Shown here in pieces: positions 1,705-10,610 of a stretch of DNA of 11,134 nt (within the stretch, counting starts at the first letter, position 1; the number at the start of each line of letters is the position of its first letter). The notes beneath the pieces were generated by a model that saw only the letters and a list, made by a program, of their open reading frames with translations, had not been told where the DNA came from and ran no database searches. The position numbers and the translations under genes are program-made. Source of the DNA: a virus (taxonomy: Duplodnaviria; Heunggongvirae; Uroviricota; Caudoviricetes). The stretch lies in the IMG/VR virus record IMGVR_UViG_3300000357_000123, one strand, 5' to 3'.

Positions 1705-4146
1705 TTAAAAATCAGCCTGACTCGGGATCAGTTTTTGCCAGATAACTGAAACGTATTTTGCCTGGTAACGGGCGTCATCAAGTGCATTATGGCGCTCACC
1801 TTCGAATGGAATAGCCGTTCTGGCATCGAAGTCTATGGCTTTCCCCAGCTCAACGATTGTGCGTACATCGCGATCGTTGTAGTAACGCCACGGGCAGGGG
1901 ATCCCCTGCCGTTCGTATGAACGGCGCAAAATCGTGTTGTCGAAGTTGGCTCCATTTCCCCAGACCTGAACAAAAAATTCACCGGAGTTTTCGTCGATAA
2001 ATTCCCGCAATTGTAACAGTGCATCATCTAACGGGATTTCATCGGTCATAATGGCAGATTGCGCTTCGCGTGATTGCTTAAGCCACCATTTAATGGTGTC
2101 CCGATCAATGACTCCGCCAGCAGTTTCCAGATCGATAGTCTTACTAAATTCCGGTCCCATATCTCCGGTTTGCGGATCGAAAAATATTGCACCTATTGAG
2201 ATGATCGGGGCATCAGGATTTTTTCCCATGGTTTCAAGGTCGATCATTAGATGGTCACACGTCCTGCTGGTGGATGTGATTTCTTGATGACCGTTCACCT
2301 TAATTGAGTGATCTGCCGTCTCGCCAGTTTCATTATCGCTATCGTGATGCTGATTGCCGCCAGTGTTCTCCTTGTGTGGATGTTCAGCGCCTTCCATTTC
2401 CTCCGGATCATCTTCCTGAACTTCAACCTGATACTCTTCATCGAATGTTTCCTGGTATGTTGCGTCGCCCATCACCGCGCCACAATCAGGGCAGTTGCCG
2501 CCGCCGGTCTGACCGCAGGCGGTGCAGACTTTTTCCACTTCCTGTTGCGCCACTGGTTCGGATTGTTTCGTTTCTGGCTCGTTTTGTAACGCATTTGGGC
2601 TGTTTTGTTCCGCTTTTTGGTCGTTCCGTTCCGATTCATGCTGGTTCTGGTTCACAGAATCGCGAGTCTGGATCCCTTTGACCCATTTCGGATCATTAGG
2701 GTCGCTAATCCCCTCAACAAATTCACCACGCGATACAGCAAGTAACTTATCGGCGTCAGGCTGGCTGATATTGGCTGCCTGCATAATTTTGTTTACTTCG
2801 TCAGCGGTGACTTTTACTTGGTTAGCGGAACTCACCTGCGACTGAGCATCCAGCGACTGCGCGTTCTGGCCATGTTCAGTTGTATCCGGTTCCATTGTTT
2901 CAGTTGTTGCCTGTTCACCTGCCATTGCGTCAGATGGTTGTGGTTTTTCTTCTTCTGTTTCACGCTCAGTAACCACCTCGCGGTTAATTTCTTCCAGGAT
3001 ATCTTTTTCCGGCGTATGCCGGGCAGCTGTGAGAGTTTCCTTGCTGGGGTTCTCGTGATCAGTTTCCGTCAAATAGGCGTTGATATACCCCTGAAGGCGT
3101 CCCGGGTAGTGATAAAATTCAGGGTGTGCGCTTCGGATAAGTGCAAAAATAGCGGCGCGGGAATAGTCCAGAATACCCGGGGTTGCACGAAGTGCTGCGG
3201 ACCATTCTTTGAACGGACTTTCTTTGTTCAGGACTACTTCTTTTGCGCGACGATAAACGCTGCCCGGAATTTCATAAATATTAAAATCCATCGGAAGTGT
3301 GGCTGCTGCAATCTCCACATCCAGTGTGTCGAGGGTGTGTACTAAATTCGGATTGCGATCGGTTTTGTTCCCACCGCCAGCATTAGCACCGGAAGCCGTG
3401 CGGGTGATGCGTGAAACACGATTTCCTTTCATCCACTCTTTTGTCAGCAAACCCCGATCAGTGTAGTCAGCGTCTAGGTATGCTTCGAAAAAAGCAGTTA
3501 TTAGTCCCAGGTCTGAATTACCAGGATTAGGGAAAACTTTGTCAGTGTCACGAACCAGTTTGTGGAGGTCGCGAATCTCCAGCGAGTCGAGCAGACTGGT
3601 TTTATGCGAAATAGCCAGGGCAGTAACAGCCGGTAGTTCTTCAGCCCGTGCAATGTGTAATGCCTGGAGTTCGTCGCGTGAAACGTGCGTTACTGGTTTT
3701 TCGCTGCCGTGTTGAGCAAGCCAACGAATGGGCAGTTCCTGACCGGAGACAGGCAGAAGCATGCTCTCCTCAATCTCAGTCATGGCTTCGCCGTTGATGT
3801 TGGTATTGTCAGTGCTGGCTGGTTTGTCCTGAACAGAGGGGGAAGGGCCGATAAATGTCATTGTGATGCCATCTTTCCCGCCTTTTTCATAGCGATTGCA
3901 GAATTCAGTATCAAACACGCCTTCTGGCGGAAGGTCGTCAACAACGGGCAAATTGACGCGGACGGGTTTTTTAAAGTCGTCTTCATCATAATCGTTGTCA
4001 TCCATTGCGGTAATGCAGCGGGAGATTGCAACAGATAATTTTTTTGCTGTAGTCCAGTAAAAACCACCTTTAATTCCTAGGCGTTTTCTTACTTTGTCAT
4101 TTTTTGCTTCGCAATATAGTGCAAATTCTTCTTTATCAGTGCTCAT
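1705..4146 (-). CDS. RecE-like (exodeoxyribonuclease VIII-like) N-terminal region fused to a C-terminal DEDDh (DnaQ-like) 3'-5' exonuclease domain; probable intact counterpart of Qin YdfE
   Basis: 813-aa ORF. The C-terminal 184 aa (about 1708-2259) carry the three classical DEDDh motifs: MIDLETMG (Exo I), [10 protein letters not shown] (Exo II), [11 protein letters not shown] (Exo III). A C-x2-C-x7-C-x2-C motif ([16 protein letters not shown], about 2479-2528) and an acidic/Q-rich low-complexity linker precede it. The N-terminal region resembles RecE-family prophage proteins from memory. The annotated ATG at 4146 lies 4 nt from the 4151-4247 N-run with no in-frame stop between, so the true N-terminus may be longer. 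Confidence 0.85.
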
Positions 4147-4330: not shown

Positions 4331-4524
4331 TTAAAATCCTGCCGGGATTTCGTTATTATCCTGGTGAATAACTTTATCGACCGGATAACAGTTGCCTGGA
4401 ATTTTCTGTTCGGTTGCTGCTGCCATACATTCCTGCATTGTTCTGTGAACACTGACTGNNNNNNNNNNACTGACTCTCCGGAAACAAGAAAAACCGTCAG
4501 AATAAGTGCAAATACTGGATTCAT
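4331..4524 (-). CDS. ydfD: YdfD-like small protein with hydrophobic N-terminal segment (Qin YdfD lysis-protein family), interrupted by a 10-nt N-run
   Basis: ATG at 4524 overlaps the dicB stop (ATGA) and has an AGGA RBS; N-terminus MNPVFALILTVFLVSGES is TM/signal-like. After the 4459-4468 gap the protein-like frame is the one ending at 4331 (VSVHRTMQECMAAATEQKIPGNCYPVDKVIHQDNNEIPAGF); the gap-preserved frame ending at 4318 is K/R-rich and looks spurious. Confidence 0.55.
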
Positions 4525-4791
4525 TGTGCACATCCTTTTGGCATCAGACGTAAACGGGCCAGCATTGAAACAATGCATACTTTATTTAATAACTCCCNNN
4601 NNNNNNNNNNNNNNNNNNNNNNNNNNNNNNNNNNNNNNNNNNNNNNNNNNNNNNNNNNNNNNNNNNNNNNNNNNNNNNNNNNNNNNNNNNNNNNNNNNNN
4701 NNNNNNNNNNNNTAAATACAGGATTACTGATAGTGACACCAATTTCAAAACAACCTTCAGACGTATTAACGTTTGGTAATAACGTTTTCAT
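4521..4791 (-). CDS. dicB: Cell-division inhibitor DicB (MinC-activating), interrupted by an N-run
   Basis: N-terminus MKTLLPNVNTSEGCFEIGVTISNPVF and C-terminus ELLNKVCIVSMLARLRLMPKGCAQ match E. coli DicB as I recall it; GAGGG RBS 7 nt upstream of the ATG at 4791; sits immediately downstream of DicF as in the Qin dicB operon. The 115-nt N-run is longer than the roughly 33 nt expected for a 62-aa DicB. Confidence 0.8.
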
Positions 4792-5049
4792 TATCGCGCC
4801 CTCAACAATGAGTTTTGTGATGCGGTGCCTGGTGCCTCCAGGTGACGTTAACCAGTTAACAATTAACGCCGGATACAGAGAATCCACCCATAACACTGTT
4901 TTTGGTTTTAACTGTTCCGCGTGCGCTTANNNNNNNNNNNNNNNNNNNNNNNNNNNNNNNNNNNNNNNNNNNNNNNNNNNNNNNNNNNNNNNNNNNNNNN
5001 NNNNNNNNNNNNNNNNNNNNNNNNNNNNCCGCATCACAAAATTCACTTT

Positions 5050-5107
5050 AAAAAGGGCGGCAGAGCAGTCACGGAGTAAAACTGATACCGCCAAACGTCA
5101 CCAGAAA
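5050..5107 (-). ncRNA. dicF: DicF small regulatory RNA (Hfq-dependent; targets ftsZ and other mRNAs) with its rho-independent terminator
   Basis: Minus-strand sequence TTTCTGGTGACGTTTGGCGGTATCAGTTTTACTCCGTGACTGCTCTGCCGCCCTTTTT matches the E. coli DicF sequence from memory, including the GC stem (GGCGG...CCGCC) followed by a U-run; flanking sequence (AAAGTGAATTTTGTGATG) also matches the remembered dicF-dicB spacer. Confidence 0.85.
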
Positions 5108-5448: not shown

Positions 5449-5752
5449 TTAACGCGGGTATGTAATCATTCTGGCAATGCTTAATGCCGCTGCTTTTTCC
5501 AGCCTGGTGATATCCTGCTCCAGAGCGGACAGATTTTCAGCCTGCTTAGCTCTGGCTTCATNNNNNNNNNNNNNNNNNNNNNNNNNNNNNNNNNNNNNNN
5601 NNNNNNNNNNNNNNNNNNNNNNNNNNNNNNNNNNNNNNNNNNNNNNNNNNNCATTTCAGATCCTGCGCTGCATTAATTTTCTGGCGCATCCACTCATAAA
5701 GTTCATCATCGGTATAGTCTGGCGCGATGATGACGGGTTCTCGTTTCTGCAT
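5449..5752 (-). CDS. ydfC: YdfC-like small protein of the dicB operon, interrupted by an N-run
   Basis: ATG at 5752 with a GAGGA RBS 6 nt upstream; N-terminus MQKREPVIIAPDYTDDELYEWMRQKINAAQDLK; after the 5562-5651 gap the only protein-like frame reads EARAKQAENLSALEQDITRLEKAAALSIARMITYPR and stops at 5449. Visible residues sum to 68, close to the roughly 72 aa I recall for YdfC, so the real gap is probably about 12 nt rather than 90. Confidence 0.6.
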
Positions 5753-5781: not shown

Positions 5782-5991
5782 TCAGCCGTTAGATTTTGCC
5801 GAACTGGAAAGCGCCTGTTTAAATTCGTTGAAGCTGTGAGCTTCTTCGCCTTCGGCAAGGCCTTCGAAGNNNNNNNNNNNNNNNNNNNNNNNNNNNNNNN
5901 NNNNNNNNNNNNNNNNNNNNNNNNNNNNNNNNNNNNNNNNNNNNNNNNNNNNNNNNNNNNNNNNNNNTTCCATGATTGTGTCAAAATCCAT
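5782..5991 (-). CDS. ydfB: YdfB-like small protein of the dicB operon, interrupted by an N-run
   Basis: ATG at 5991 is 1 nt downstream of the ydfA-like stop (TGAtATG) with a GGTGAG RBS; N-terminus MDFDTIME; after the 5870-5967 gap the frame reads FEGLAEGEEAHSFNEFKQALSSSAKSNG and stops at 5782. Confidence 0.5.
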   Translation of the reverse strand: MDFDTIMEXXXXXXXXXXXXXXXXXXXXXXXXXXXXXXXXXFEGLAEGEEAHSFNEFKQALSSSAKSNG

Positions 5992-6610: not shown

Positions 6611-7165
6611 TTACTGGTTGTACGGTTCGATCNNNNNNNNNNNNNNNNNNNNNNNNNNNNNNNNNNNNNNNNNNNNNNNNNNNNNNNNNNNNNNNNNNNN
6701 NNNNNNNNNNNNNNNNNNNNNNNNNNNNNNNNNTGTTGAACCATTTGGGATGGAAACTCCCCCACCAGATGTTGACATACTGTCACTCTCTAGAACAACT
6801 GCAAAGGTATTGACCGGGATTTCTCCGACAAGCTGCACACAAGAGGTTATTGAGGAATTTTTCATATAATCACTCCAGCTTGCTGCCTGCTGAAGTGATA
6901 GTAGCGGAACCGTTTTTATCGGCGGTAAAGATAGATCAAGCGAATCACCTGTATTTAACTCTCCTCCATTAAGAAGCCAATTTTCGTTTACTTTCAATAT
7001 TTTTGCCAGTGAACTTATGTAACGCGAGGACGGCGCTCCTCCACCGTTCATCCATTGACTTACGGAGCCTTTTGATGCGCCAGTGCCATTGACAAGGTCT
7101 TTGCCTTTCAGGTTTAGCGCATGCATACGTTGGGTTATGCGTTCAGATATAGTTTGCTTGCTCAT
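6611..7165 (-). CDS. cI: CI-type prophage repressor (XRE-family HTH N-terminal domain plus S24 LexA-like autopeptidase C-terminal domain), interrupted by an N-run
   Basis: 184-aa ORF; HTH signature (GTGASKGSVSQWMNGGGAPSSRYISSLAKILKVNENWLLNG); S24 catalytic-serine motif ESDSM followed by the glycine-rich loop. Divergent from the cro-like gene across a 91-bp region. The C-terminal domain looks too short (about 54 aa after the Ser), so the 6633-6733 N-run probably hides more sequence than its length. Confidence 0.85.
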   Translation of the reverse strand: MSKQTISERITQRMHALNLKGKDLVNGTGASKGSVSQWMNGGGAPSSRYISSLAKILKVNENWLLNGGELNTGDSLDLSLPPIKTVPLLSLQQAASWSDYMKNSSITSCVQLVGEIPVNTFAVVLESDSMSTSGGGVSIPNGSTXXXXXXXXXXXXXXXXXXXXXXXXXXXXXXXXXXIEPYNQ

Positions 7166-7256
7166 GTTTTGATTTTAAAACACAGATGGTTTTGTTTCTT
7201 GACTTTCTTTGGTTTTGATTATTAAACTTTTGACGTTCAGTTTTATGGAGCGACTC
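7166..7256. promoter_or_regulatory. Divergent immunity control region (OR-like): rightward promoter and candidate operators between cI and the cro-like gene
   Basis: TTGACT (7199-7204) with TATTAA (7220-7225) 15 nt downstream as a candidate pR; GTTTTGAT(T) repeated at 7166-7174 and 7212-7220 and GGTTTTG at 7188-7194; palindromic TTTTAAAA at 7174-7181. Confidence 0.5.
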
Positions 7257-7576
7257 ATGAAAAAATCAGAAGTATTAGGCTATTTTGNNNNNNNNNNNNN
7301 NNNNNNNNNNNNNNNNNNNNNNNNNNNNNNNNNNNNNNNNNNNNNNNNNNNNNNNNNNNNNNNNNNNNNNNNNNNNNNNNNNNNNNNNNNCTAGGAACGT
7401 CAAAAACCACAGTCAGCATGTGGGGGGAAGAGGTTCCGTGGAAATGGGCGTTGCTAATTCAGGCAGTCACTGCCGGGGCGCTCAAATATGAGTTACACAT
7501 ACCGACGGTTGTCATTCCCGGTTCTGATCATAATCCGCCTTCTAACCAAGGGGGGATTCATGAAAATCAAGCATGA
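7257..7576 (+). CDS. Cro/YdaS-like small HTH regulator, interrupted by an N-run
   Basis: ATG at 7257 with GGAG 6 nt upstream (MKKSEVLGYF...); after the 7288-7390 gap the protein-like frame reads LGTSKTTVSMWGEEVPWKWALLIQAVTAGALKYELHIPTVVIPGSDHNPPSNQGGIHENQA with TGA at 7574-7576; first gene rightward of the repressor. Confidence 0.6.
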
Positions 7577-7985
7577 ACACATCCGCATGGCGATGAATGC
7601 CTGGGCGCATCCGGACGGCGAAAAAGTACCGGCTGCGAAAATTACCAAAGCGTATTTCGAGCTGGGAATGACGTTCCCGGAACTGTATGACGACAGCCAT
7701 CCGGAAGCCCTGGCTCGCAATACCCAGAAAATTTTCCGCTGGGTAGAGAAAGACACCCCTGATGCAGTTGAAAAAATTCAGGCGTTGTTACCAGCGATCG
7801 AAAAGGCAATGCCACCTTTGCTGGTGGCCAGAATGCGCAGCCACAGTTCAGCTTATTTTCGGGAGCTGGTGGAGACGCGGGAGCGACTGGTGAGAGACGC
7901 TGATGATTTTGTCGCAGTGGCAATCGCCGGTTTCAATCAGATGAACCGTGGTGGCCCGGCAGGAAATGCTGTGGCAGTACATTGA
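7560..7985 (+). CDS. YdaT-like protein (Rac-prophage YdaT family; proposed CII-like regulator or toxin)
   Basis: 141-aa ORF from the ATG at 7560 with a strong AAGGGGGG RBS; starts MKIKHEHI as I recall Rac YdaT does; overlaps the upstream cro-like gene by 17 nt. Confidence 0.75.
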   Translation: MKIKHEHIRMAMNAWAHPDGEKVPAAKITKAYFELGMTFPELYDDSHPEALARNTQKIFRWVEKDTPDAVEKIQALLPAIEKAMPPLLVARMRSHSSAYFRELVETRERLVRDADDFVAVAIAGFNQMNRGGPAGNAVAVH

Positions 7986-8056: not shown

Positions 8057-9210
8057 ATGGCTAACGCCTGGCTCAGATTATGGCATGACATGCCAAATGA
8101 CCCTAAGTGGCGAACAATTGCCAGGGTGTCAGGGCAGCCAATTGCAACAGTGATGGCAGTGTATATCCACCTCCTGGTGAGCGCGTCACGAAATGTCACG
8201 CGAGGTCACATTGATGTCACGACAGAAGATTTGGCAAGTGCGCTCGACGTGACAGAAGAGGTAATTGATTCAATTTTGCAGACGATGCAGGGGCGGGTAC
8301 TTGATGGTGATTTAATCACTGGATGGGAAAAACGCCAGGTGCTGAAAGAGGACAACGGCAATATTTCGCAAACCGCAAAATCTCCGGCAGAGCGCAAGAG
8401 GGCGCAGCGAGAGAGGGAAAGAAAGCGGGAACAAAATGGCGATTGTCACGGCGAGTCACGAAATGTCACGCACATGTCACGACGAGTCACGACAGATAAA
8501 GATACAGATAAAGATACAGATCAAGAAGATCAAAACACTATGGTCCATGGCGTAAAAAACGCCACGAACCAGGCAGGGGATGTTCAGACCGTCACTCCTG
8601 GCCAGCCCGCAGGCACGACACCGGAAGCCGATTCAGCGTATGCGCTGAAAGCCGATTCGGGCGCTGTGCAGCAGGTGATGACCGCAAGGCAGGAGCAATC
8701 ACACCAACTTCAGCAGCCTGAAGCCGATTCCGCCATTCAGCGGGAAGCCGATCGGGTAGTCCCGGAAAACACCGGGCAGCCTGTGGGACGAGTGGATTAT
8801 CCTGATGTGTTCGAACAGGTCTGGCGGGAATACCCGTTGCGTGCCGGGGCAAACCCGAAGAANNNNNNNNNNNNNNNNNNNNNNNNNNNNNNNNNNNNNN
8901 NNNNNNNNNNNNNNNNNNNNNNNNNNNNNNNNNNNNNNNNNNNNNNNNNNNNNNNNNNNNNNNNNNNNNNNNNTTACGCGAGGGGGTGCCACCAGAGGCC
9001 ATGCTGGATGGCGTGAGGCGTTACGCAAGATACCTTGCGGCTACCGGGAAAACGGGAACGGAATTTGTTCAGCGAGCGACGACGTTTTTTGGACCGGACC
9101 GGAATTTTGAAAACCCCTGGCTGCTCCCGGTAAGCGGCACGAACAACCAGCGTTGTGTGAATCATATTTCTGAACCGGATAACGAAATTCCGCCGGGCTT
9201 CAGGGGGTAA
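8057..9210 (+). CDS. Replication initiation / replisome-organizer protein (YdaU/DUF1376-like N-terminus) containing the probable origin iterons, interrupted by an N-run
   Basis: ATG at 8057 after GAGGTG; N-terminus MANAWLRLWHDMPNDPKWRTIARV fits the phage replisome-organizer N-terminal pattern (W.KL... DPK) as I recall it. After the 8863-8973 gap the protein-like frame (LREGVPPEAMLDGVRRYARYLAATGKTGTEFVQRATTFFGPDRNFENPWLLP...) runs to TAA at 9208-9210. The gap-preserved frame ends at 9016, so one gene versus two is unresolved. Confidence 0.6.
8185..8221 (+). repeat. Iteron array 1: four direct GTCAC(G/A) repeats at 10-11 bp spacing
   Basis: GTCACG at 8185, 8195 and 8216 and GTCACA at 8205; an inverted copy CGTGAC at 8248-8253; the 17-mer GTCACGAAATGTCACGC is repeated exactly at 8455-8471. 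Confidence 0.5.
8445..8516 (+). repeat. Iteron array 2: five direct GTCACG repeats at 10-11 bp spacing followed by a tandem 12-bp A-rich repeat
   Basis: GTCACG at 8445, 8455, 8465, 8476 and 8486; then GATAAAGATACA twice (8493-8516) and an A-rich stretch, resembling an iteron-plus-AT-rich origin layout. Confidence 0.5.
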
Positions 9211-9250: not shown

Positions 9251-9673
9251 GTGGCAAAAGTTTTTACACAAGAAGAGCGGGAAAAAATTAAAGGACAGGT
9301 TCTTGAACTCGTACGCCAGAGTGGGCGCGAGACGTTACGACAACTGGAAGCTAAAACTGGGGCAACAAGATATCTGATGAGCGTTCTGGCCAGAGAGCTG
9401 GTTGCCAGTGGCGATGTATACAATTCTGGCTACGGGTTATTCCCGTCTGAACAGGCTCGTAAAGACTGGCAAAATGCCCGCAAAAAATTATCGAGGGCAA
9501 AGCTGAAGAAACCGGTTGTGGTTGATCCGGACCTTATCTGGTCGTTACCTGACGGAGAAATACGTCGCTACGACAGTCGCCTAAACATAATCTGTCGCGA
9601 GTGCCGGAAGAGTGAAGCTATGCAGCGTGTACTGGCTTTCTATCAGGGTAATTTTCAGGAGGCGGTACTGTGA
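9251..9673 (+). CDS. Hypothetical protein (140 aa) downstream of the replication initiator
   Basis: GTG start at 9251 preceded by AGGAGG (9241-9246); uninterrupted 140-aa ORF; no family recognised. Confidence 0.6.
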   Translation: MAKVFTQEEREKIKGQVLELVRQSGRETLRQLEAKTGATRYLMSVLARELVASGDVYNSGYGLFPSEQARKDWQNARKKLSRAKLKKPVVVDPDLIWSLPDGEIRRYDSRLNIICRECRKSEAMQRVLAFYQGNFQEAVL

Positions 9674-9730
9674 GTGAAATTAGCTATCAGGCTTCAATTA
9701 CCGCTGGCATTCGCATCAAAGGAGAGGAGC

Positions 9731-10087
9731 ATGGAAATAAAACCAGAGGATGAGTTAAGCAATATCGTTTTATTTCCGGTAAAAGAGGATGACCCTCGTA
9801 ATCAGGTTAATTTTCTTTATGAGCCATCGGAAAGACCATATTGTCATCACGCCTCTGTCCGGGTTGACGAAAAAGAGCGTCAGGTCCGCTGTAAAATCTG
9901 CGGTGCAGTTGTGGAGCCATTTGACTGGATGCTCTCTGTGGCGAAAAGAGAAACCAGACTGGCAGATGATGTAAGGCTCTTGCGTCAGGAGGAGCGGGAA
10001 AGGCGAAAAAATATAGAAAAGCTAATTCAGATTGAGCGTAACGCGAAAGCGCGGATACGCAGGGCGACAAAATCCAGAACTGAATAA
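9731..10087 (+). CDS. Hypothetical small protein with a putative zinc-binding motif and a basic, coiled-coil-like C-terminal tail
   Basis: ATG at 9731 with GGAGAGGAG immediately upstream; 118 aa; motif CHH-x14-C-x2-C (PYCHHASVRVDEKERQVRCKICG) followed by a K/R/E-rich tail. An alternative GTG start at 9674 abuts the upstream stop but lacks an RBS. Confidence 0.6.
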   Translation: MEIKPEDELSNIVLFPVKEDDPRNQVNFLYEPSERPYCHHASVRVDEKERQVRCKICGAVVEPFDWMLSVAKRETRLADDVRLLRQEERERRKNIEKLIQIERNAKARIRRATKSRTE

Positions 10088-10363: not shown

Positions 10364-10610
10364 TTTTGGTTCAACTAAATACAACGTCAGTTTTGAAGAA
10401 TGGCATGAACTGTTANNNNNNNNNNNNNNNNNNNNNNNNNNNNNNNNNNNNNNNNNNNNNNNNNNNNNNNNNNNNNNNNNNNNNNNNNNNNNNNNNNNNN
10501 NNNNNNNNNNNNNTGGTGGCAGTGCTGCTGATGCTGAAGCATGGCGTGATGATTATGAAGCAGGAAAAACTCCGGTCGAAGCATATTGTGATGAGTGGGG
10601 CGATGAATGA
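10356..10610 (+). CDS. Small acidic hypothetical protein, interrupted by an N-run
   Basis: ATG at 10356 with an AGAGGA RBS 8 nt upstream, overlapping the previous stop; visible parts MADFGSTKYNVSFEEWHELL and GGSAADAEAWRDDYEAGKTPVEAYCDEWGDE; stop TGA at 10608-10610 overlaps the next ATG (ATGA). Frame across the 10416-10513 gap is unverified. Confidence 0.5.
   Translation: MADFGSTKYNVSFEEWHELLXXXXXXXXXXXXXXXXXXXXXXXXXXXXXXXXXGGSAADAEAWRDDYEAGKTPVEAYCDEWGDE

Follow-up and report, generated by a model that had tools for sequence, protein, structure and literature searches.

Two arrays of short phased repeats, an A-rich purine tract and a hairpin lie at positions 8185-8571 of the 11,134-nucleotide (nt) viral record IMGVR_UViG_3300000357_000123 (this whole stretch is called the window below), which is a Rac-like lambdoid prophage of Escherichia coli. 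We consider this segment to be probably, with a probability of roughly 0.8, the vegetative replication origin of the prophage, placed inside the gene of its own initiator; this reading is drawn from the sequence and from analogy with characterized phages. The repeats are real, non-random and selected as DNA, their architecture is conserved, the two arrays of a locus co-vary, and they are co-inherited only with the N-terminal domain of the initiator. As in the general class of origins located inside initiator genes, both arrays lie within the initiator open reading frame (ORF, 8057-9210), and direct repeats that are selected as DNA stand next to an AT-rich tract. This kind of element is already known, and what is new is a very widespread proteobacterial member of it, whose distinctive traits are a core of 5-7 base pairs (bp) phased at one helical turn, a second array in the loop of the DNA-binding domain, an inverted copy and clade-specific cores.

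The elements of the candidate origin are as follows.

8185..8221, + strand: array 1, four GTCAC(G/A) cores, encoding A43-T55
8248..8253, - strand: inverted core copy (GTGAC on the + strand), 27 bp 3' of array 1
8445..8491, + strand: array 2, five GTCACG cores, gene nt 389-435
8492..8537, + strand: A-rich, purine-rich tract, candidate DNA-unwinding element, gene nt 436-481
8541..8571: imperfect inverted repeat (hairpin), TGGTCCATGGCGT-AAAAA-ACGCCACGAACCA, directly 3' of the A-rich tract

An exact search of the + strand placed GTCACR at 8185, 8195, 8205 and 8216 (spacing 10, 10 and 11 bp) and again at 8445, 8455, 8465, 8476 and 8486 (10, 10, 11 and 10 bp), with array 2 lying 260 bp downstream of array 1. 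This agrees with the preliminary description of the sequence, which had counted nine direct GTCAC(G/A) copies at 10-11 bp in clusters 8185-8221 and 8445-8491. The same description had mentioned a 17-mer common to both clusters, a tandem 12-bp repeat and an A-rich tract, and all of these were found: one and the same 17-mer, GTCACGAAATGTCACGC, stands at both 8185-8201 and 8455-8471, and the 12-mer ACAGATAAAGAT is repeated 2.9 times at 8492-8526 within the A-rich tract. The inverted core copy and the hairpin after the tract are further conserved parts that it had not included. Elsewhere in the window (about 10.8 kb), the search returned just four scattered GTCACR copies, and no other phased array was found.

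The A-rich tract encodes an acidic low-complexity stretch, DKDTDKDTDQEDQ, and contains two GATC sites (8519-8522 and 8528-8531), and the GC content is 0.33 at 8500-8559 versus 0.50-0.68 nearby. Hand inspection of the tract for a DnaA box, an IHF site or an oriC 13-mer gave weak partial matches, none of which we claim. The hairpin folds as DNA at -8.7 kcal/mol (z = -3.9), a stability equalled by 0 of 200 shuffles, and it is flagged as terminator-like on the - strand. Rfam and tRNA scans revealed no known RNA in the array region. Array 2 itself gives a weak sigma-70-like match on the - strand (8442-8469, GTGACA-16-GACAAT, 9/12), with the count of promoter-like matches equal to the shuffle expectation.

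The N-runs of the window are masks that do not preserve true length, and such masks produce false frame changes in ORF lists, including an apparent one in the initiator gene. Since the 110 N at 8864-8973 stand for 27 real bases (a query span of 1901 nt versus 1818 nt in 100%-identical genomes), the gene (8057-9210, + strand) is a single ORF of 356 codons encoding 356 amino acids; in agreement, the two halves of the window ORF match positions 1-268 and 279-356 of phrog_3729, 'replication initiation protein'. The gene also bears the name 'phage replisome organizer', and its N-terminal domain is a DnaD-like winged helix; the preliminary description had likewise called it a replication initiator. 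A profile search of PDB sequences gave no match. The protein is divided as follows.

Residues ~5-97: winged-helix domain
Residues 110-126: basic helix
Residues ~129-255: disordered linker
Residues ~250-316: helical C-terminal domain

Mapped on the structural model, array 1 encodes the last part of helix 29-45 together with loop 46-55, which precedes helix 56-63, inside the folded DNA-binding domain, and the inverted copy encodes V65-T66 in the turn of the helix-turn-helix. Array 2 encodes residues 130-145 at the start of the disordered linker, and array 2 together with the purine tract covers residues 130-160 of it. The preliminary description had placed the repeats in a protein linker, which is right for array 2 and wrong for array 1. 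The DNA signals thus sit in regions of the protein that are structurally permissive. The C-terminal part can be exchanged: a DnaT domain (PF17948) takes its place in Aeromonas phage pAEv1818 and many E. coli O157 alleles, and the window's own C-terminal part also occurs in Shigella and Stx phages behind sequence unlike the N-terminal part of the window protein.

The phased repeats are not explained by base composition. Same-strand pairs at 10-11 nt number seven in the window versus a mean of 0.02 and a maximum of 2 in 2000 dinucleotide-preserving shuffles, and in 300 shuffles no 5-mer of any sequence gave more than two phased pairs, which excludes chance. Because a period of 10-11 nt is not divisible by three, the reading frame shifts from one core to the next, and the hexamer is translated in all three frames, as xxG-TCA-CGx (S-R), GTC-ACG (V-T) and xGT-CAC (G/C-H). 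Four of the encoded pairs are VT and three are SR, with a single GH and a single CH, so that the reiterated V-T/S-R residues noticed earlier are there, accompanied by two further pairs. We then resampled gene nt 1-600 synonymously, with the protein fixed and codons redrawn from local codon usage. Across 20,000 trials, the mean was 1.7 GTCAC copies and 0.13 phased pairs (at most 4 pairs), compared with 10 copies and 7 pairs observed.

Codon usage in homologues gave the same picture. Among 22 species-level homologues with the GTCAC core, we compared codons of conserved residues by the Mann-Whitney test: the share of the top codon was 0.98 for codons overlapping array 1 (n = 8) versus 0.51 for the 35 others (p = 7e-6). 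In all 22 species Val47 is GTC, Thr48 is ACG and Gly50 is GGT, whereas Val32, outside the cores, is GTG, GTC, GTT and GTA in 5, 8, 7 and 2 species, and Arg49, between two cores, uses four codons freely. The third-position G of the inverted copy is retained in 19 of the 22. In Escherichia albertii (L092), array 1 holds six cores instead of four (gene nt 129-186), the extra ones having arisen through an in-frame 21-nt insertion of two repeat units, or seven codons ('TCHGVSL'), indicating that copy number changes in frame-preserving steps. Taken together, the three-frame reading, the resampling, the frozen synonymous sites and the E. albertii insertion establish that the repeats are a DNA signal under nucleotide-level selection, not a protein repeat.

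A scan of viral contigs with the single protein returned solely E. coli contigs that are 99-100% identical and of no use for divergence tests. Eighty of these near-identical contigs (L005-L084) carry 13 origin haplotypes, and most of their single-nucleotide polymorphisms leave the cores intact and lie in the spacers; GGCGAG/GGCGCG ahead of the second array-2 core is one example. Three singletons each destroy one core, perhaps a sign that defective prophages are decaying.

Of 5,426 complete E. coli genomes, about 1,600 contain the gene with its arrays (coverage at least 80%), and so do phages or prophages of Shigella, Pseudomonas, Aeromonas, Ralstonia, Bordetella, Serratia and many others. Because isolated phages, among them Evi, Tritos and vB_EcoS-640R1, carry a gene that is 98-100% identical, the module can be assigned to phages whose complete genomes have been deposited. 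For distant homologues, we collected phage records and one genome per species (80 loci); 73 loci could be evaluated, and they cover Gamma-, Beta- and Alphaproteobacteria, several other phyla (as metagenome-assembled genomes) and phages. Homologues at 30-70% protein identity retain the nucleotide repeats, the ~10-bp phase and the A-rich tract, which is the opposite of what had been proposed as a refutation, namely homologues that keep the protein and lose the repeats through synonymous variation. Two phages at ~70% identity, Pseudomonas phage phita81A and Aeromonas phage pAEv1818, have the two arrays, the inverted copy and a tract of the GATAAAGA type at the same gene coordinates; the inverted copy is at gene nt 193 in the Pseudomonas and Aeromonas phages, as in the window.

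Array 2 has an equivalent in nearly all 73 loci, with 3-6 cores at 10-11 bp within gene nt ~330-470, and the comparison of repeats and phase that the preliminary description had suggested thus came out in favour of conservation. The 50 nt that follow array 2 are richer in AT (0.59 vs 0.42 for the gene) and in purines (0.71 vs 0.56; each p~1e-13). In the averaged single-strand folding profile, the purine tract is flat at about -0.8 kcal/mol, the least self-structured point, and a hairpin peak of about -6.2 kcal/mol, against a background of -4.4, follows 35-50 nt after array 2; the window hairpin at 8541-8571 conforms to this family profile. Four loci from unrelated hosts (L086, L093, L108 and L134) have a near-identical hairpin loop/stem motif, CCTCACTACGTTCGG, with complementary arms, directly after the purine tract and ~30-60 nt after array 2. 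Elements of the CCCCCCTTACCCCCC type take this place in other loci, and the window hairpin is different. The hairpin motif after the purine tract may be a conserved priming or loading signal.

The core itself differs between clades (GTCACG, GCAACG, GTAACG, CGAACGC, GGAACGC and GTGACGC), with a 3' ACG common to all. Ralstonia phage Hennie, for instance, has 4 + 4 copies of GCAACG, and two spring-water phages have (C)GAACGC. In the array-1 zone (gene nt 60-230), 44 of the 73 loci hold at least three copies of the locus's own core. There, the core of the same locus's array 2 occurs 2.60 times versus 0.33 for cores of other clades (p = 1e-10); the shared core of the two arrays points to one sequence-specific reader. 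Array 1 is less fixed in position. In a Xanthomonadales clade it lies at gene nt 87-107 instead of 129-165, and the GTCAC array is shifted ~40 nt earlier than in E. coli at loci of Stenotrophomonas, Solilutibacter, Luteibacter, Noviluteimonas and Dyella (L143, L146, L149, L150 and L152). In Massilia-type loci (L153, L155-L157 and L166) it is absent, and a single core is found at gene nt 265. These shifted and absent arrays show that array 1 has been moved or lost in evolution.

To identify the candidate reader, we counted coding elements within +/-1.5 kb of the arrays in 71 loci. The N-terminal domain of the initiator was linked to the arrays in 71/71 and is the only constant coding element, compared with 4/71 for YdaT-like genes, 0/71 each for DUF977 and cro-like genes, and 3/71 for the C-terminal domain of the window protein.

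These results are consistent with a model in which the DnaD-like winged-helix N-terminal domain would recognize the GTCAC(G) cores. With cores one turn apart, bound monomers would be aligned on the same side of the helix and would oligomerize. The complex formed at array 2, which may be bridged to array 1 260 bp upstream, might then strain the A-rich purine tract (8492-8537) until it melts, after which the exchangeable C-terminal domain would recruit the host helicase-loading machinery, proposed here since the window has no phage gene for a helicase or a loader after the initiator. Transcription from an early promoter may cross the origin, as in lambda. The steps of binding, melting and helicase recruitment are modelled on SPP1 and lambda. 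Some relatives encode a partner next to the organizer: DnaB in Ralstonia phage Hennie and in Cy-LDV1, and a DnaC-like loader in pAEv1818. The neighbour of the organizer in the Pseudomonas phage is an ORF of 609 residues that carries no annotation. The last 24 residues of the window initiator (333-356; 9139-9207) align to the extreme C-terminus of E. coli DnaT (NF002770 positions 156-179, E 7e-4, far under the cut-off), and the tail ..PPGF(R/N) recurs in an Aeromonas phage protein (L003 3300-3343) despite a different C-terminal domain; the tail might act as a docking peptide to which a protein of the host primosome binds.

Among characterized origins, oriL of Bacillus phage SPP1 offers the closest precedent. 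It is embedded in gene 38, consists of G38P-bound repeats and an AT-rich unwinding element, and has been experimentally reconstituted, a 356-bp fragment being able to drive reconstituted theta replication (PMC5737612, PMC6316719). Reading gene 38 directly, we found GACA(C) at gene nt 366, 377, 388 and 399 (11-bp phase, block 366-403); an A-rich tract comes immediately after it (nt 405-470) and contains 9-bp tandem repeats. We infer that this block is oriL, as it is the sole repeat-plus-A-rich block in the gene. Both systems therefore have an origin, candidate in our case, within the organizer gene, with phased repeats and then an A-rich tract at the same gene position and in the same order (366-403/405-470 in SPP1, 389-435/436-481 in the window) in the linker-coding part. 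G38P also resembles the window protein in having an N-terminal DNA-binding domain of the DnaD/replisome-organizer type, a linker and a C-terminal partner-binding domain. However, SPP1 has no array in the part encoding the N-terminal domain, has a second site (oriR), carries its own loader and helicase (G39P and G40P) directly downstream where the window has DUF977, and uses the core GACAC instead of GTCACG.

The preliminary description had likened the layout to lambda, and that comparison stands for the location of the candidate origin within the initiator gene, although the nearest precedent is SPP1. In lambda and Stx phages, ori consists of iterons and an AT-rich tract in the middle of gene O, and extra iterons add residues to the protein (PMC7466680). 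The window has the same candidate arrangement of initiator-binding iterons with an adjoining AT-rich tract in mid-gene, and it shares with lambda the gene order of immunity region, cro, CII-like gene and initiator. The lambda iterons are ~19 bp long, internally symmetric and ~24 bp apart, unlike the asymmetric 5-7 bp cores at 10-11 bp spacing in the window. An inverted repeat lies beyond the AT-rich region in lambda, and transcription through ori is needed. Lambda has one array, with six iterons in the Stx-phage ori variants, whereas the window has two arrays 260 bp apart and an inverted copy, and it has no P-like loader gene. The lambda-O-type Pfam family gave no match at E<=10 for the window protein or four homologues; since the protein is not of the lambda-O family, SPP1 oriL is the closer precedent. 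Iteron origins of theta plasmids are served by winged-helix Rep proteins, such as the RepA of staphylococcal multiresistance plasmids with its DnaD-like N-terminal domain. Plasmid iterons are usually units of 17-22 bp in non-coding DNA, unlike the window arrays, which lie in coding sequence and have much shorter units phased at one helical turn.

Several results weigh against assigning the segment as an origin of this type. Array 1 is missing in ~40% of family members, which makes its role in initiation uncertain. The initiator scored below the cut-offs of the SPP1-type profiles, with E 0.12 and 12.8 bits against 23.3 for PF09681 (Phage_rep_org_N) and E 0.015 and 15.5 bits against 49.8 for TIGR01714, even though the alignment spans residues 5-122 to positions 1-118/121, and hhalign of G38P with the family profile gave a probability of 0.4, which is not significant. 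With similarity below threshold, the link to SPP1 is one of fold class and layout. A helicase or helicase-loader gene is absent 3' of the initiator in the window (9251-10087), making the step after melting conjectural. Mutual information found no N-terminal-domain residues tracking the core sequence beyond the array-encoded loop: the top columns are simply the residues that array 1 and the inverted copy encode, and the remainder are confounded by phylogeny, so that we claim no specificity determinants. Finally, the searchable literature yielded no paper describing a replication origin for this initiator family, or its binding, unwinding or autonomous replication.

The main competing explanation, which we regard as unlikely, is that the arrays are initiator-binding sites with a mainly regulatory function, such as autoregulation of transcription or translation, a roadblock or handcuffing copy control, and that the true origin is elsewhere in the phage. 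Two separated arrays with the same core would suit such a role, and the absence of array 1 in ~40% of relatives means that it is dispensable for basic function. There is also a precedent, in that G38P of SPP1 also binds oriR, a non-initiating second site where it may stall forks (PMC3485210). However, array 2 is always accompanied by an A-rich purine tract and a hairpin, which marks an unwinding element and not an operator; the equivalent SPP1 block is an active origin (PMC5737612); and the 11-kb window offers no other phased array. A regulatory role of array 1, by autorepression, handcuffing or looping, is compatible with an origin function of array 2.

It is very unlikely that the repeats serve another factor, such as a CII/YdaT-like, Cro/CI or DUF977 protein or a host protein, in transcription control, packaging or recombination instead of initiation. 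The weak promoter-like match from array 2 on the - strand (8469..8442, 9/12) and the two GATC sites in the A-rich tract could be read this way, but promoter-like matches are at shuffle expectation, clade-specific cores speak against a conserved host factor, and the arrays follow the N-terminal domain (71/71) and not YdaT-like (4/71), DUF977 (0/71) or cro-like (0/71) genes. Hardly credible is the notion that the repeats have no DNA-level function and arose from a peptide repeat, codon bias or chance. Although VT and SR peptides recur and array 1 falls in a conserved protein stretch, a 10-11 nt period cannot come from a peptide repeat, the hexamer is used in three frames, synonymous sites are frozen only inside cores, and E. 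albertii gained two units as one 21-nt in-frame insertion. Codon bias and chance are ruled out by synonymous resampling and shuffles. We therefore rejected the peptide-repeat and chance explanations on the frozen synonymous codons and the resampling and shuffle tests.

If the segment is the origin, the likely origin can be located family-wide by a rule that looks at a fixed position of the organizer gene for phased ..ACG cores followed by purine tract and hairpin, and the clade-specific cores could explain replication incompatibility or immunity between co-resident prophages. The arrays also illustrate very cleanly how a protein code and a DNA code can overlap, as synonymous sites are frozen in all three frames. 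That an origin can lie inside its initiator gene is textbook knowledge, so the result extends known biology and overturns nothing. As array 1 lies in the reader's own DNA-binding loop, a change of specificity might have to alter array 1, array 2 and part of the reader at once, and the arrays may also pair via initiator oligomers, looping the 260 bp as a firing control; we put this forward as a speculation that is rather unlikely to be correct, and in which array 1 would do more than supply spare binding sites. If it were true, origin specificity and initiator sequence would be physically coupled in one DNA stretch, and dozens of mutually orthogonal, predictable origin/initiator pairs would be available across Proteobacteria.

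The remaining features of the window are listed below.

207-1325, - strand: integrase
1705-4146, - strand: recE-like exonuclease
5055-5106, - strand: full-length DicF antisense small RNA (Rfam RF00039, 76.7 bits, E 6e-16)
6611-7165, - strand: LexA/CI-like repressor
7199..7228, + strand: pR-like promoter-like site upstream of the cro-like, YdaT/CII-like and initiator genes (consensus scan, 9/12 matches)
Between the repressor and the YdaT/CII-like gene, + strand: cro-like ORF
7560-7985, + strand: YdaT/CII-like gene (PF06254, phrog_163)
9251-9673, + strand: DUF977/Ren-like gene (exclusion protein, phrog_142)
Within 9251-10087: zinc-ribbon ORF of 137 residues, downstream of the initiator (phrog_1621)
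Near 1400-1500, 4450-4460, 4600-4700, 4950-5050, 5560-5650, 5870-5970, 6630-6740 and 10420-10520: further N-runs

The pR-like site comes from a consensus scan and, if real, would send transcription across the arrays. An identical, unmasked copy is present in E. coli CFSAN061763, flanked by recE, kilR, ydaE and hokD. In Rac of E. coli K-12, the position held here by DUF977 and the zinc-ribbon ORF is occupied by ydaU/ydaV, so the replication module has been swapped. HNH endonuclease Pfam domains (PF01844 and PF14279) are fused to some distant homologues of the N-terminal domain (P0144, P0146 and P0148-P0150). DicF, a prophage-borne inhibitor of ftsZ translation, is annotated in phage Tritos too, where it adjoins the same replication module.

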